A stretch of 64,000 nt of DNA from Escherichia coli (GTDB lineage: Bacteria; Pseudomonadota; Gammaproteobacteria; Enterobacterales; Enterobacteriaceae), in assembly GCA_005400705.1 (NCBI GenBank), contig GCA_005400705.1_4079.1; one strand, 5' to 3'. Both the position numbers and the translations under genes were made by a program. Positions 12,264 to 39,814 of this stretch are shown here, piece by piece. The notes under the pieces are model-generated. The model was not told the DNA's origin. It did not search any database and was given only the letters and a program-made list of their open reading frames with translations. Position 1 is the stretch's first letter; each line of letters begins with the position of its first letter.

Positions 12264-13103
12264 ATGACAAATAGACCAAAGCGTAAAAAGTATCTCAATA
12301 ATGCTGATTTACTGCGTGAAATACAAAAAAGTAAAATTTCATATTGCTGGTTATTAGACAAATCATATAGTATGTATGATTATATTGTTTTTCATGAGTC
12401 AGAAATTACTGCTGAGTTACTAGAAAAAGCTAAGGCAGCCCGAATTAAACGACTGAACAATGAAATGCTTGATAGTATTCGTGAAAAGGAAAATATGAGT
12501 GCTAAAAAAGCTAAAGAATATGCAGATGAACACAATTTAGTTATCACTGACGTTCCAATTGATGAAGTTGTTATTCGTGTTATTACAGATGAACATATTC
12601 CACCAGATACTAGAGTTAACTTTGAACCATTCAAGCATTATATTGTAGATAATGAAGGTATTCTCTATGAAGTTTGTCGTTCTCACTGGAAAGGCGACCT
12701 TGAAACTGGTGAATTCAGTACTGTTCATGGTAAAATTACAAATGAACTTGGGAAGATGTTCATTAAACTTGCAGAGGAAATCTCACACAAATCTAATTAC
12801 AGAAACTATACATACTTAGATGAAATGATGGGTGATGCAAGAATACAATTAGTTAAAAACGCACTTCTCTTTAAAGAGAGCATTCTTTATAAAAAAGATA
12901 AACCAGCAGTTCAGCTAAATCCTTTCTCTTACTATACATCATTCGTAAACAATAGTTTTCGTTCTATATTGAATAGTGAGAAAAATGTTCGAAATATACG
13001 TGATGATTTACTTGAAATGCATGGCTTTACGCCATCACATACACGTCAAATTGAAATTGAATTGAACATGATTGAAAGGAAAAATGAAGATGGCTCTGTT
13101 TGA
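12264..13103 (+). CDS. gp55: late-transcription sigma factor (gp55-like), extended C-terminus
   Basis: N-terminal KYLNNADLLREIQKSK resembles gp55 N-terminus as recalled; T4-like synteny 55-47-46; GGAGAG RBS. Confidence 0.6.
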   Translation: MTNRPKRKKYLNNADLLREIQKSKISYCWLLDKSYSMYDYIVFHESEITAELLEKAKAARIKRLNNEMLDSIREKENMSAKKAKEYADEHNLVITDVPIDEVVIRVITDEHIPPDTRVNFEPFKHYIVDNEGILYEVCRSHWKGDLETGEFSTVHGKITNELGKMFIKLAEEISHKSNYRNYTYLDEMMGDARIQLVKNALLFKESILYKKDKPAVQLNPFSYYTSFVNNSFRSILNSEKNVRNIRDDLLEMHGFTPSHTRQIEIELNMIERKNEDGSV

Positions 13104-25655: not shown

Positions 25656-25721
25656 CATTTTAAAAATATAAATATCTGTATGTTGAAGTACAGATATTTC
25701 AGTACTTAAAGGAGAGAACGA

Positions 25722-26837
25722 ATGTCTAAATTAGAAAAGCTTCTAAAAGAATCATCTCTTTCTGATGAGGCAAAACAGCTAATTCAGGAAGCATGGAATG
25801 AAGAAAAGAATACACTAGCCGCAGAGATGCGTGAAGAAATGAAAGGCCGTTATCAGCAAGATTTGGCTGAACTAACCGAAGGTTTGAACACTATGGTTAC
25901 TCAAGTCATTGCTGAAGAAATGGGTGCTGTATATGAAGAGAAAAAACGTCTCGTTGAAGATCGTGTAACTCTACGTAAAACACTAAGCAATTTCTCTGCG
26001 TTTTCAAACTCTGTTTTGGCTGAAGAAGTTAAACAAATGCGTAAAGAACGTAAGCATCTTCATGAATGCATGGGTAAATTCGTTAATTTTTCTAACGGTA
26101 TCCTAGCAGAAGAGCTAAAAGAATTCCACACTGAAAAACGTCAACTAGTTGAAACTCGCGTTAAACTACTTGCTGAAGGTTCACGTCAAATTGCTGAAGC
26201 TCGTAATAACTTCATCAAACGTACATCTGAAAGTGCTGCTAAATATATTGCAGAAACCACTCAGAAGAATCTATATGCGTTGAAACAAGATCTAGTGGAA
26301 GCAAAACAAAATATGTTTGGTCGTAAAATCTTTGAAGCATTTGCTCAAGAGTTTAATGTCAAACAATTTAATGAAAACTCATTGCTACGTTCCCTAACTG
26401 AATCAATTAAATCTAAAGAAGATGAAATTGCTCAAGTTAAGCAAGAACTACATGAAACTGCTAATGCGGTTAAAGCTGCTAAAACCAAACTACGTATTAT
26501 GGAAGATGCACAAGCACGTAATGCGATTATGTCTGAACTAGTAAAACCACTAACTGCACAGCAAAAACAAATTATGGAATCTCTTCTAGCTACTTCACCT
26601 ACTGAAAAGCTTAAAGAAGATTTCAGCAAGTACCATAAGTCAGTACTTAACGGTACTAAAGTAAATGAATCTGCTACCACTCGTCAAGCAGTTCAGTCTT
26701 CCGCTAAGAAAACTCTTGCAGAAGGTAAAGTAATCACTGGCAACCGTCAGGCTATTGTTGAAAGCGAAGAAATGACCGCTGACGATATGGCATTCCTAAA
26801 AGAACTCGATGTTCTTTCAGGTATCAATAAAAAATAA
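25722..26837 (+). CDS. gp22: prohead scaffolding protein (gp22-like), coiled-coil rich
   Basis: 371 aa, heptad-rich E/K/L/A composition; TATAAATA at 25667-25674; position protease-scaffold-MCP. Confidence 0.65.
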   Translation: MSKLEKLLKESSLSDEAKQLIQEAWNEEKNTLAAEMREEMKGRYQQDLAELTEGLNTMVTQVIAEEMGAVYEEKKRLVEDRVTLRKTLSNFSAFSNSVLAEEVKQMRKERKHLHECMGKFVNFSNGILAEELKEFHTEKRQLVETRVKLLAEGSRQIAEARNNFIKRTSESAAKYIAETTQKNLYALKQDLVEAKQNMFGRKIFEAFAQEFNVKQFNENSLLRSLTESIKSKEDEIAQVKQELHETANAVKAAKTKLRIMEDAQARNAIMSELVKPLTAQQKQIMESLLATSPTEKLKEDFSKYHKSVLNGTKVNESATTRQAVQSSAKKTLAEGKVITGNRQAIVESEEMTADDMAFLKELDVLSGINKK

Positions 26838-26928
26838 ACATTTTAAAGCATTTTAATAATCAAATTTTTCAGTTCTATAAATAATATCATACTGAAAAAC
26901 GAATATAACATCTTTAAGGAGATATATA

Positions 26929-28104
26929 ATGTCACAACTACTAAATGAATCCAAATGGGTAGCAGTAAAAGAGAAACTAGTTGAAGGTCTACAGGGTACT
27001 CGTAAGTCTGTAATGGAAACTGTTCTTGATAACCATCGTAAAGTTATGCTAACTGAATCCGCAACTTCTGGTGCAACTACCGCTGGTAACATCGCTACTC
27101 TAAACAAAGTGATTCTACCAATTATGCGTCGTGTAATGCCAACCGTTATTGCTAACGAAATCATCGGTGTTCAACCTATGACTGGTCCAGTTGGTCAGAT
27201 CCACACCCTACGTGTACAATATGCTGATAACGCACCTGGTGTAATCGCTGGTGAAGAAATGCTTTCTCCATACAAAATCGCTAAATCTTACTCTGGTGAT
27301 CTAAATGCGGATAATAGCAACCCACAAGCTGCTCCTACTAGCCAACTAGAAGGTACTATGGGTCGTCGCGTTAACATCCGTATTCTACGTGAAACTGTTG
27401 AAGCGAAATCTCGTCGTCTATCTGCACGTTGGACTGTTGAATCTGCACAAGATGCTCAATCCCAACATGGTGTTGACGTTGAAGCAGAACTAATGGCTGC
27501 AATCGCTCAAGAAGTTACTGTAGAAATCGACCAAGAGCTACTAAGCCGTCTACGTGCACTACCTGGTGCTGCTGCTGTAACTTATGACCAATCTAAAGTT
27601 ACTGGTGTTGCAACCTTCGTTGGTGATGAGCACGCTGCTCTAGCTACTCTAATTAACCGTCAAGCAAACGAAGTTGCTCGTCGTACTAAGCGTGGTGCTG
27701 CAAACTGGGCTGTTGTTTCCCCAACTGCACTAACCATTCTACAATCTGCTACTACTTCTAGCTTTGCACGTACCACTGAAGGTACTTTTGAAGCACCAAC
27801 TAACGTTAAGTTTGTAGGTACTCTAAACAGCACTATGCGTATTTTCGTTGATACCTATGCTAGTGATGCAGAAGATATTCTAATTGGTTATAAAGGTAAT
27901 GCGGAAACTGATGCTGGTGTATTCTATTGCCCATACATCCCACTAATGGCTTCTGGTACTGTAATGGACCCTAACACTGGTGAACTCGTGACCACATTTT
28001 TAACACGCTATGGCTACGTTCAGCTAACCGACAGTACTTCATCTCTTGGTAACGCTGCTGACTACTACAGCAAAATCGCTATCAAAAACGTTACTTTCAT
28101 GTAA
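26929..28104 (+). CDS. gp23: major capsid protein (gp23/gp24 family)
   Basis: 391 aa; IANEIIGVQPMTGPVGQIHTLR, RETVEAKSRRLSA, DAGVFYCPYIPL resemble conserved gp23 segments as recalled; TATAAATA at 26876-26883, AAGGAG RBS. Confidence 0.85.
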   Translation: MSQLLNESKWVAVKEKLVEGLQGTRKSVMETVLDNHRKVMLTESATSGATTAGNIATLNKVILPIMRRVMPTVIANEIIGVQPMTGPVGQIHTLRVQYADNAPGVIAGEEMLSPYKIAKSYSGDLNADNSNPQAAPTSQLEGTMGRRVNIRILRETVEAKSRRLSARWTVESAQDAQSQHGVDVEAELMAAIAQEVTVEIDQELLSRLRALPGAAAVTYDQSKVTGVATFVGDEHAALATLINRQANEVARRTKRGAANWAVVSPTALTILQSATTSSFARTTEGTFEAPTNVKFVGTLNSTMRIFVDTYASDAEDILIGYKGNAETDAGVFYCPYIPLMASGTVMDPNTGELVTTFLTRYGYVQLTDSTSSLGNAADYYSKIAIKNVTFM

Positions 28105-37293: not shown

Positions 37294-37593
37294 ATGAAAA
37301 TTAAAATGATTAATGATTACGTTCTTGTTCGACAAATTGAAGCACAGAATAAAAGTACTGGTGGTATTATTCTAGGTAATGTTGAACCACCATGTATTGG
37401 GATGGTAATTTCCGTTGGTCCAGGTAAAATTCTTCCGAACGGACAACTTGCAGAACATAATATTAAAGAAGGTGATATGGTTGTGTTTGGTCGTTCATCT
37501 TTGAACACACCACTGACTGAAGATCTTGGTGGCGGTGAAGATACATATTATGTAATGAAAATCGAAGAGATTTTTGGTAAGAAAAATGGCTAA
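37294..37593 (+). CDS. GroES-like co-chaperonin (Cpn10 family; functional analogue of T4 gp31)
   Basis: 99 aa; YVLVRQIEAQNKSTGGIILGN mobile-loop signature, GMVISVGPG, IKEGDMVVF; GGAGG RBS 37281-37285; track start at 37231 is an upstream extension. Confidence 0.75.
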   Translation: MKIKMINDYVLVRQIEAQNKSTGGIILGNVEPPCIGMVISVGPGKILPNGQLAEHNIKEGDMVVFGRSSLNTPLTEDLGGGEDTYYVMKIEEIFGKKNG

Positions 37594-38311
37594 AAAGAAA
37601 TTTATTCCATTTTGGATGGTCCCTGCTCACTGGGGACTTTCTGGAAAGGCAAAAGAGATAGCTAAAGCATACTACTACAATGATGATTATGAAGCTGATA
37701 TGAAAGTTGCTGAATTGACATATCTAACTCCATATGAAGTTGAAGTGGCCCAATTGGATATTAAAAAGAAATATAGCGTAATTGGAGATTTGGAATATCT
37801 AATTGCTGCACTTGATGTTGAACTAAAATATTCTAAAATTACTCGTGAACAGTATGATGTTAAAGTTCTTGATGCAAAACTAAGTATTGGAGTTATTACA
37901 GAAAAAGAATATGATATGGAAATCATTGAGTTAATGCCAGAAGGTGATGAAAAAAGGCTTAAGGCTATTGAATTTGCATATCGTTACGATGAAATCACAC
38001 AAAGTGAATATTCTAAGGAAATATACACACTTCGTAAAGAACCTTGGATTGATTTGGATGTTGTTCTTGATCCTGAAACTAATGAAGTTGAGTTTGTATT
38101 TGACTATAATGAATATTTCTGGAAAAAGTTGAAAGCTGAAGGTCATCCAGGAAATGATGAAGAAGAAATTATCGATAACTTTGTGAGAGACTTGGGGCGT
38201 AAACTTGCTACGGATGATTTCAGTGATGATTACGACACAAAGCTGGTGAGTGCGAACGAAGGATTAGACAAGCTACCTGGTTTGCCTGAAGGATTTCGTT
38301 CATATAGATAA
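37586..38311 (+). CDS. hypothetical protein
   Basis: Track ORF from TTG 37574, ATG at 37586. Confidence 0.5.
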   Translation: MAKKKFIPFWMVPAHWGLSGKAKEIAKAYYYNDDYEADMKVAELTYLTPYEVEVAQLDIKKKYSVIGDLEYLIAALDVELKYSKITREQYDVKVLDAKLSIGVITEKEYDMEIIELMPEGDEKRLKAIEFAYRYDEITQSEYSKEIYTLRKEPWIDLDVVLDPETNEVEFVFDYNEYFWKKLKAEGHPGNDEEEIIDNFVRDLGRKLATDDFSDDYDTKLVSANEGLDKLPGLPEGFRSYR

Positions 38312-38323
38312 CATATAAAAAAA

Positions 38324-38350
38324 GGAGAGCAAATGCTCTCCTTTTCTTTT
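38324..38350. terminator. bidirectional rho-independent terminator
   Basis: GGAGAGC-aaat-GCTCTCC with TTTTCTTTT downstream on plus and T-run on minus. Confidence 0.65.
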
Positions 38351-38358
38351 GAAAAATA

Positions 38359-39048
38359 TTAAACCAATGCTGGGATGTATTGGAAAAGTTTAACACCGAA
38401 ATCACCTGCTGCATCAGCAGATTGGGAACGTAGGTAAACTTCGGTAACACCATCTTTAGCAAGTAGTGGAACACCAGTTAGATCATCAATTAGTAGACGG
38501 CCTTCTTCGGATTCAGTACTTGGTACACCTTGTGGTGATTTAAGATCTTTGTTAAAGACACCCGCACGTTCAACTAGGAAGGTAACAACAGAAGCATCAG
38601 CAATACTAACTGAACCTGCACTCAATACACCATCAGGTGCGTTGGTGAAACCAGTAACTGGAAATACTTCAAGACCATTACCTGCGATGTTAGAGGTAGC
38701 GATGATAACCGCACGTTGTTGAACAACATCGACAATACGTTTAACGTTAGTTTGTGCTGCATAAGATGCATTGTAATCAGCTTCTAGTGTGCCAAGAACA
38801 AATGCAGTTCCATCAATACGTTTGATACCTTTATCATTTAGATATGCTAGAATTTCTTCTGGAATATCAGTGTTTAGAAAACGTTGTAGACCAGCATAAG
38901 AAGAAACTGCACCAGTAACTAGAACGTTTACGTCTCCTAGCTTACTGATAGCAATGGATGCTAGGGCGTTAGTGCCACAAAAGTAACCTAGAATACGTTC
39001 AAAGGAATAACCATTGATACGTTCAAAAGAAGTATTAGTATATGACAT
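38359..39048 (-). CDS. putative virion structural protein, paralogue A of tandem pair
   Basis: 229 aa, A/G/V/T/S-rich; shares QQRAV(I/L)..TS...FxNAxP...TF(L/I)xER.xVFNK with the adjacent gene. Confidence 0.55.
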   Translation of the reverse strand: MSYTNTSFERINGYSFERILGYFCGTNALASIAISKLGDVNVLVTGAVSSYAGLQRFLNTDIPEEILAYLNDKGIKRIDGTAFVLGTLEADYNASYAAQTNVKRIVDVVQQRAVIIATSNIAGNGLEVFPVTGFTNAPDGVLSAGSVSIADASVVTFLVERAGVFNKDLKSPQGVPSTESEEGRLLIDDLTGVPLLAKDGVTEVYLRSQSADAAGDFGVKLFQYIPALV

Positions 39049-39062
39049 AATCTATCCTCCTA

Positions 39063-39662
39063 TTATAGTTGAACAGGAAGAGCAGCACGTACTTTAATTG
39101 CTACAGCAGTAGATGCACCTGCATCACCAACACCATCAGTACCTTGACTTACGAAAGTTTTGGTACGGAAAACTTTAGCTTGAGCGATAGACTTAGCTAG
39201 GTCAACAGTTGGATCAACTGGAGCAGGACATGCTGAACCAGGACGAACTTCTTGCTTGTTAAATACGTCTTGACGTTCACAGATGAAAGTCAATGCAACA
39301 GAATTAGCACCACCTGCTACATCAGCACCACTAGTGCCGAACGCAACTACGTTTGGATTAGCATTTTTGAAATCAGCAGGAATAACAACTTCTGAATCAA
39401 GAGCTAGTAGAGAGGTAGTAACTAGAACTGCACGTTGTTGTAGTAGTTGGGTAACCATGAATAGGTTATATTGAGCATTACTTAGAGCAGTTTGATACGC
39501 TTCAGCTTGAACATCAGAACCGTCAGAAGTAACTTTGGTAGTACCTAGTTCAACATCAGTTGGTAGATCGATTACGATGGTAACGAAACCGTTATTACCA
39601 CCCCACCATTCGCGAGCAACGCTAGACATACCATAGTTACGGTTAAAAGAATTAAGACTCAT
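39063..39662 (-). CDS. putative virion structural protein, paralogue B of tandem pair
   Basis: 199 aa; AAGGAGA RBS; TTTGATAAATAA repeats upstream on minus strand. Confidence 0.55.
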   Translation of the reverse strand: MSLNSFNRNYGMSSVAREWWGGNNGFVTIVIDLPTDVELGTTKVTSDGSDVQAEAYQTALSNAQYNLFMVTQLLQQRAVLVTTSLLALDSEVVIPADFKNANPNVVAFGTSGADVAGGANSVALTFICERQDVFNKQEVRPGSACPAPVDPTVDLAKSIAQAKVFRTKTFVSQGTDGVGDAGASTAVAIKVRAALPVQL

Positions 39663-39785
39663 GAAAATCTCCTTGTCAAATTTTGTGCAGGTATATCCTG
39701 CTTAAAGTTATTTATCAAAAAATATCACTAGCATTTAAATTTACTGAGATATTTAATGAATTTCTATGATATTATTTATCAAATC

Positions 39786-39814
39786 TGGGAAAGTGATTCA
39801 AGATGTGCTATAAT
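39786..39814 (+). promoter_or_regulatory. promoter, TGGGAA-N17-TATAAT class with TGTGC extended -10
   Basis: TGGGAA 39786-39791, TATAAT 39809-39814. Confidence 0.5.

Follow-up and report, generated by a model that had tools for sequence, protein, structure and literature searches.

Abundant paralogous virion proteins gp210 and gp211 of Rak2-like jumbo myoviruses as candidates for capsid decoration

T4 Soc, lambda gpD and phage L Dec are small accessory proteins of the non-essential type that are present at about the copy number of the major capsid protein (MCP) and form a mesh between the capsomers. Cement proteins of the Soc type join the capsid without proteolytic processing, their expression is late, and their T4 genes lie apart from the head gene cluster. 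The genes gp210 and gp211 studied here lie in a 64,000-nucleotide stretch of DNA filed under Escherichia coli (assembly GCA_005400705.1, contig GCA_005400705.1_4079.1), referred to below in its entirety as the window. The 1.8-kb region carrying the two genes is 100% identical to Escherichia phage vB_EcoM_phAPEC6 (MK817115), an Asteriusvirus and Rak2-like jumbo myovirus with a genome of ~350 kb, and at least 99% identical to 121Q, PBECO4, G17 and others. The closest described proteins are the direct orthologs ORF106w and ORF107w of RaK2, GAP32_264 and GAP32_265, and CBB_270 and CBB_271, which are 50-70% identical and display the same gene order, promoter and leader architecture and proteomic behavior, with no difference of substance. 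Compared with Soc, gp210 and gp211 are two to three times larger, form a conserved paralogous pair and show no sequence or fold similarity to solved decoration proteins, and, unlike for Soc, gpD and Dec, their capsid location is that of a candidate only. Gp210 and gp211 are an ancient paralogous structural pair limited to Rak2-like jumbo myoviruses. That they form a capsid decoration or cement layer is the reading favored here, at about even confidence, on the basis of their abundance and of cryo-electron microscopy (cryo-EM) densities that have no gene assigned to them.

A paralogous pair of abundant virion proteins

An initial annotation of the window had described two minus-strand open reading frames of 229 and 199 amino acids (aa), and both are present as described (Table 1). 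Their paralogy, proposed from a shared QQRAV...TF..ER..VFNK core, is established by a BLASTP alignment with 35% identity over 89 aa (E = 8e-9), while gp211 has an additional helical insert at residues 51-73 relative to gp210. Along their full length, both proteins match phrog_9326 ("virion structural protein"; E = 1.3e-86 for gp210 and 3.4e-86 for gp211). This is the sole PHROG match of either protein, and Pfam gave none above threshold.

The initial annotation had further likened the pair to abundant virion proteins and named virion proteomics as the check, and published mass spectrometry (MS) bears this out, as both proteins were detected in phAPEC6, RaK2, CBB and fENko-Kae01; their presence in virions is thus established. 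Published coverage in virions amounts to 70-91% in three phages. For phAPEC6, it is 69.8% for gp210 and 69.9% for gp211, next to 74.9% for the MCP and 68% for the sheath, and in cesium chloride (CsCl)-purified virions of CBB, the gp211 ortholog CBB_270 reached 91.3%, at the top of 55 proteins. The RaK2 proteins ORF107w and ORF106w were found at their predicted sizes on a sodium dodecyl sulfate-polyacrylamide gel of virions and were called abundant by the authors; since they migrate at these sizes, they are uncleaved. Using the supplementary table for fENko-Kae01, spectral counts per residue, which are only semi-quantitative because the sample is crude, are 0.253 and 0.214 for the two orthologs and 0.271 for the MCP, compared with 0.035 for the sheath and 0.016-0.033 for three tail-tube paralogs. 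Length-normalized, the pair thus reaches 0.79-0.93 of the MCP, 6-7 times the sheath and 6-16 times the three tube paralogs. High abundance is therefore established, and at this semi-quantitative level the copy number is comparable to that of the MCP and not sheath-like.

The richness in Ala, Gly, Val, Thr and Ser ascribed to the two proteins was also found, the five residues making up 0.48 of gp210, 0.45 of gp211 and 0.45 of the MCP, compared with 0.25-0.32 in the products of neighboring replication and packaging genes. In addition, the leucine codon CTA is favored in gp210 (11/15), gp211 (15/22), the MCP gene (25/30) and the scaffold protein gene (20/37). The preference was not seen in the terminase, portal, RNase H and polymerase genes, and the window holds no tRNA gene to account for it. 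Both proteins are acidic, with isoelectric points (pI) of 4.6-4.8, and slightly hydrophobic.

AlphaFold2 (AF2) predicts a compact globular alpha/beta domain, with a pLDDT of 80.8 for gp210 and 80.6 for gp211, and the gp210 model is an alpha/beta sandwich with an N-terminal arm that is disordered yet conserved. No convincing solved relative of this predicted fold emerges. Single-sequence searches of PDB sequences and profile searches gave no credible match, Foldseek returned nothing from the PDB at E <= 0.001, and against BFVD it found family members and uncharacterized phage proteins only. Neither sequence nor fold homology to solved members of Soc, Hoc, gpD/SHP, Dec, pb10 or Psu was found. 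An exhaustive hidden Markov model search of 1.84 billion representative proteins recovered 40 clusters only, all belonging to this same family. Some of the distant homologs have an inserted domain of ~90 aa ahead of the last beta-strand, for which Pfam and PHROG searches gave nothing significant; such an insert fits a surface-exposed protein.

Several database labels of the pair and its neighborhood conflict with one another. In GenBank, phAPEC6 gp211 is a "hemagglutinin repeat-containing protein", the gp210 ortholog of CRJP21 a "recombination protein" and the RNase H gene a "DNA polymerase". The hemagglutinin-repeat label of gp211 is unsupported, as a Pfam search with both proteins gave only a sub-threshold match to GLMA_C, and the label of the CRJP21 ortholog is at odds with the proteomics as well as the PHROG match. 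In relatives, the RNase H gene has a 5'-3' exonuclease domain. Within the conserved N-terminal arm of gp211, codons 6-21 (38984-39031, minus strand) contain a 24-nucleotide (nt) tandem duplication, 79% identical, that encodes SFERINGY and SFERILGY, and orthologs from other genera have one clear copy. Finally, Vibrio phage 2.275.O encodes a third same-strand gene upstream of the pair (NVP2275O_488, 227 aa; L006 1135-1818), and the gp210 model is matched (E = 1.3e-4) by a 227-aa entry of BFVD that may be the product of this gene, judging by the similarity of its UniProt accession. The gene may thus be a third paralog.

Candidate positions in the virion

Cryo-EM maps of phAPEC6 and 121Q show a ridge network with a Soc-like layout and a hexamer-centre protein on the capsid, neither of which has been assigned. 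Two uncleaved, acidic proteins of 21 and 24 kDa at the level of the MCP are obvious candidates for these densities, and their location would accordingly be the capsid surface. A more specific proposal, and a more tentative one than decoration as such, is a hetero-oligomeric cement lattice of gp210 and gp211 with a new fold, in which the N-terminal arms would clamp the MCP, as a lineage adaptation letting capsids of the gp23 type reach T=28.

Several points weigh against this reading. The maps are at 10 Å, and their authors state that the ridge protein is not assignable from MS and could even be a further domain within the MCP. A high-resolution capsid structure of a Rak2-like phage was not found in the literature, phiKp24 being an unrelated T=27 phage. 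The two genes lie among replication genes and not in the head module. The fENko-Kae01 sample was ultrafiltered only and contains non-structural proteins, and several unrelated proteins in it outscore the MCP. On the side of expression, mapped transcription starts, promoter use, and transcriptome or 5'-end data for Rak2-like phages were likewise not found in the literature. As to processing by the prohead protease, the RaK2 orthologs run at their predicted mass, and lack of cleavage is no proof of an external location.

The main rival places the pair inside the head, as internal proteins that build the inner body, are packaged with the DNA and are possibly ejected with it. Bubblegram imaging of phAPEC6 and 121Q has revealed this inner body as a rod of 91 × 18 nm, its proteins are without assignment, and a mass of ~19 MDa estimated from these dimensions could hold several hundred copies of a 20-24 kDa protein, a further point against a surface layer. 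The position of the genes outside the head and tail modules would suit such proteins as well. In phiKZ-like phages, the inner body is made of paralogous protein families, which also counts in favor of this role. However, in T4 and phiKZ, proteins of the head interior and core typically undergo cleavage by the prohead protease. The RaK2 orthologs show no such processing, and phAPEC6 encodes a prohead protease of the T4 type. Neither the acidic pI nor the slight hydrophobicity suggests DNA contact, and eight related virion proteins of ~30-42 kDa (gp003-gp010, gp549, gp551), six of them labeled "DNA condensation protein", are more obvious candidates. In addition, the Erwinia phage orthologs have the label "structural protein" from a study of DNA-free ghosts, which is weak evidence against this role. 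An inner-body role is thus considered unlikely, although it comes next after decoration.

Fibers, rings and contaminants are less likely than either a decoration layer or the inner body. Since phAPEC6, 121Q and CBB are "hairy" phages with unusual capsid and tail fibers, as well as an unassigned tail decoration at two levels, it could be speculated that the pair forms hairs, whiskers or tail-sheath rings. This is improbable, as the predicted fold is compact and globular instead of fibrous, as gp253, a tail-fiber-like protein with collagen repeats and 65.6% coverage, is a better hair candidate, and as the tens of copies that would suffice for tail rings fall far short of the abundance seen. It is more improbable still that gp210 and gp211 are abundant late proteins that merely co-purify, such as an assembly chaperone or a self-assembling by-product. 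Non-structural proteins are indeed regular constituents of jumbo-phage virion preparations, including ssDNA-binding protein, RecA and thymidylate synthase in phAPEC6 and many enzymes in the fENko-Kae01 sample. Yet, coverage of the pair ranks at the top in four independent preparations, one of them CsCl-purified (CBB), the RaK2 orthologs were identified on a virion gel at predicted sizes, and a structural role would fit the strictness with which the pair is conserved throughout a deep clade.

The weakest alternative, tail-tube proteins, was suggested for one or both RaK2 proteins when no tube gene was recognizable (Simoliunas et al. 2013), from sizes of 21-24 kDa, predicted beta content and abundance, and it returned as an option in the initial annotation; it has almost no probability left, as profiles and predicted folds show no link to tube proteins, a result we regard as established. 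The sheath gene is directly followed by three others, gp275c, gp274c and gp273c, whose products hit tail-tube PHROGs (phrog_4542 at 5e-86 and 8e-80, phrog_13438 and, with a weak match, phrog_45) and whose orthologs are annotated as tail tube in fENko-Kae01. Aligning the gp210/gp211 family with these phAPEC6 paralogs by hhalign gave a probability of only 0.1-0.2%, the AF2 models lack the tail-tube beta-sandwich fold, the pair is encoded ~80 kb away from the sheath gene gp277c, and its counts are 6-7 times those of the sheath, whereas tube and sheath are expected to be about equimolar. In phAPEC6, gp273c-gp275c carry hypothetical-protein annotation.

Putative late promoters, leader hairpin and terminator

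The sequence TTTGATAAATAA occurs exactly twice in the window, both times on the minus strand and 64 nt apart. By a rough estimate from base composition, the chance of two exact 12-mers in the intergenic stretch of ~170 nt is ~0.003. The repeat pair had been recognized in the initial annotation, although its coordinates there (39700-39712 and 39763-39775) were ~8 nt off the true ones (39708-39719 and 39772-39783). The resemblance to late promoters noted at the time was well founded, as the repeats contain ATAAATA, the core of T4-type late promoters. In 15 of 16 related phages, which represent at least five genera, both ATAAATA copies keep their places at about -55 and -120 relative to the start codon; the distal copy is held at -116 to -128 in 15/16 despite diverging flanks, and the proximal block TTGATAAATAAC(A/T)TTAAG shows hardly any variation across 13 Rak2-like phages.

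Motif statistics establish that ATAAATA is not randomly placed. The window contains 22 copies where 37.7 +/- 5.2 are expected, and 19 of them lie no more than 150 nt upstream of a gene start on the same strand, compared with a background of 8% of positions. Such sites precede the MCP, scaffold, prohead protease, baseplate and other virion genes, and the MCP, scaffold and gp210 sites have in common the extended consensus ATAAATA(A)TATC. The window also encodes a gp55-family sigma factor whose best profile, phrog_12791, is annotated as "sigma factor for late transcription". In T4 late units, the gp55 sigma reads TATAAATA; here, too, this core motif is enriched just upstream of structural genes, in a genome with a gp55-family sigma. 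The MCP and scaffold sites have the full TATAAATA, whereas both gp210 sites differ from T4 late units in that the first base is G (GATAAATA) and in being two tandem copies at a distance of 64 nt. ATAAATA was proposed earlier as the late promoter of CBB and GAP32, as stated by the CBB authors, and homologs of gp33 and gp45 were not reported in CBB. From these motifs, we infer promoter use and the transcription start for gp210 and gp211.

At the far end of the intergenic stretch, the distal ATAAATA borders the -35 region of the divergent rnh promoter on its upstream side; because of this adjacency, its conservation could partly owe to the divergent promoter. In CBB-type phages, TGAAAC stands ahead of the TGCTATAAT element, matching the "divergent RpoD-like" promoter class of CBB. 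Elsewhere in the window, the MCP late promoter TATAAATA is flanked by an inverted repeat, TTCAGT / ACTGAA (26868-26896), and the scaffold leader has a hairpin, ATCTGTA...TACAGAT, that starts at the promoter motif (25664-25697).

Directly after the proximal motif follows a stem-loop whose covariation is established. The stem is paired in all 65 of 65 cells across 13 aligned phages, with a loop that varies freely, compared with 26-40% pairing when the partner strand is slid by 1-3 columns as a control. Three of the five stem pairs show two-sided compensatory changes (for example, RaK2 has GTAAG/CTTAC and the Vibrio phage GCCAG/CTGGC), and the stem is present in the minimum-free-energy fold of four orthologous leaders. 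The spacing from motif to transcription start is established for T4 late promoters. With this spacing, the first transcribed base would lie near 39703 and the stem would start 2 nt later. The stem-loop is therefore likely a 5'-terminal, mRNA-stabilizing hairpin, a role suggested by position alone. It is similar to the ompA-type 5' stabilizing stem-loops in being a short, stable hairpin that would lie no more than ~2 nt from where a very highly expressed mRNA is predicted to begin, and it differs from them in that its function is read from position and the transcription start taken from T4 spacing.

The strong ribosome-binding site AAGGAGA claimed for the pair is indeed found 5 nt before the gp210 ATG, and its AGGAGA is invariant in 13 phages. 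The gap of 14 nt between gp210 and gp211 contains no terminator. Downstream of gp211, the predicted bidirectional terminator was confirmed as a hairpin that folds at -19.7 kcal/mol on the minus and -16.6 kcal/mol on the plus strand, with a U-tract after each orientation, and none of 200 shuffled sequences folded equally well. The same hairpin is annotated as a terminator on one strand in phage G17 and on the other in phage Munch. Rfam searches of the locus gave only sub-threshold matches to terminator-like small RNAs.

It may thus be proposed that the gp55-like late sigma guides host RNA polymerase to one or two of the T4-type ATAAATA late promoters of a two-gene late operon oriented against the surrounding genes. 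A transcript from the proximal promoter would begin with the conserved 5' stem-loop and so would undergo slower 5'-end-dependent decay, strong Shine-Dalgarno sites and MCP-like codon usage would give very high synthesis, and the bidirectional terminator would close the transcription unit. Both proteins would then enter the virion uncleaved at roughly the copy number of the MCP and coat the T=28 capsid externally as a decoration or cement layer, with the conserved disordered N-terminal arm as a possible clamp to the capsid or to a neighboring subunit.

Table 1 Features of the gp210/gp211 locus and related genes. Positions refer to the window unless stated otherwise.
Feature	Position	Strand	Details
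gp210 coding sequence	39063..39662	minus	199 aa, 20.9 kDa, pI 4.8; shorter paralog, first gene of the operon
gp211 coding sequence	38359..39048	minus	229 aa, 24.3 kDa, pI 4.6; longer paralog, second gene
Proximal TTTGATAAATAA	39708..39719	minus	putative late promoter, core GATAAATA; ATAAATA starts 53 nt before gp210 ATG
Distal TTTGATAAATAA	39772..39783	minus	late-promoter-like core, 117 nt before gp210 ATG
Stem-loop GCAGG-loop-CCTGC	39687..39701	minus	5-bp stem directly after the proximal motif; covariation
gp210 Shine-Dalgarno AAGGAGA	39668..39674	minus	AGGAGA invariant in 13 phages
gp211 Shine-Dalgarno AGGAGG	39056..39061	minus	inside the 14-nt intergenic gap
Bidirectional intrinsic terminator	38317..38348	both	common to gp211 (minus) and convergent gp212c (plus)
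gp212c	37586-38311	plus	convergent; terminator common with gp211
RNase H extended -10	39803-39814; TGCTATAAT at 39806-39814	plus	conserved; points at RNase H ATG 39881
gp55-family late sigma factor gene	12264-13103	plus	279 aa; phrog_12791 3.4e-154, phrog_234 8.4e-18
CTA-rich genes	38359-39662, 25722-26837, 26929-28104		leucine codon count
gp273c-gp275c	L007 38644-41307 (outside the window)		three tandem tube-family paralogs, 228, 258 and 364 aa
Insert-bearing metagenomic homologs	P0130, P0132, P0135		290-300 aa; insert with repeated GGxG(Y/F) motifs

Gene context and meaning for Rak2-like phages

Among the 17 annotated genes of the neighborhood, gp210 and gp211 are the only ones on the minus strand. 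They are flanked by the convergent gp212c, which follows GroES, and by the divergent RNase H / 5'-3' exonuclease gene. The gene order rnh <- / -> A -> B / <- X <- GroES is kept in RaK2, CBB, GAP32, the Vibrio phage and distant metagenomic relatives with ~30% identity. As the same layout is seen even in the latter two, the duplication is older than the clade. No other gene order was found in any recovered context of the distant homologs from IMG/VR, JGI metagenomes (one short contig) and Logan/ENA contigs, and because the order is identical in all of them, the context gives no functional clue. For the neighboring gp212c, the annotations in RaK2, CBB, GAP32 and PBECO4 read virion structural protein, and the fENko-Kae01 sample contained the ortholog; the virion proteome table of phAPEC6 does not list it.

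Most of the biology described here is known, and much of the earlier interpretation agrees with published work. The new material is incremental and consists of the stoichiometry argument, the recognition of the genes that truly encode the tube, the covariation in the leader hairpin and the lack of a known fold relative. The general understanding of phage biology is unchanged by these findings, while dropping the pair from the tail-tube slot corrects the suggestion made in 2013. For this phage group, the operon also amounts to a compact natural cassette for high expression, in which putative late promoters in tandem are combined with a 5' hairpin that covaries, a strong ribosome-binding site and a bidirectional terminator. 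Rak2-like phages have some of the largest capsids known in the T4 lineage (T=28, ~350 kb of DNA). Cryo-EM has visualized the outer layer of these capsids on two occasions, never tying it to a gene, and the pair narrows the candidates, with two AF2 models available for fitting into the capsid densities. If the proposed cement lattice of gp210 and gp211 holds true, the pair would be a new capsid-stabilizing family and would explain the outer layer of the 121Q and phAPEC6 capsids.

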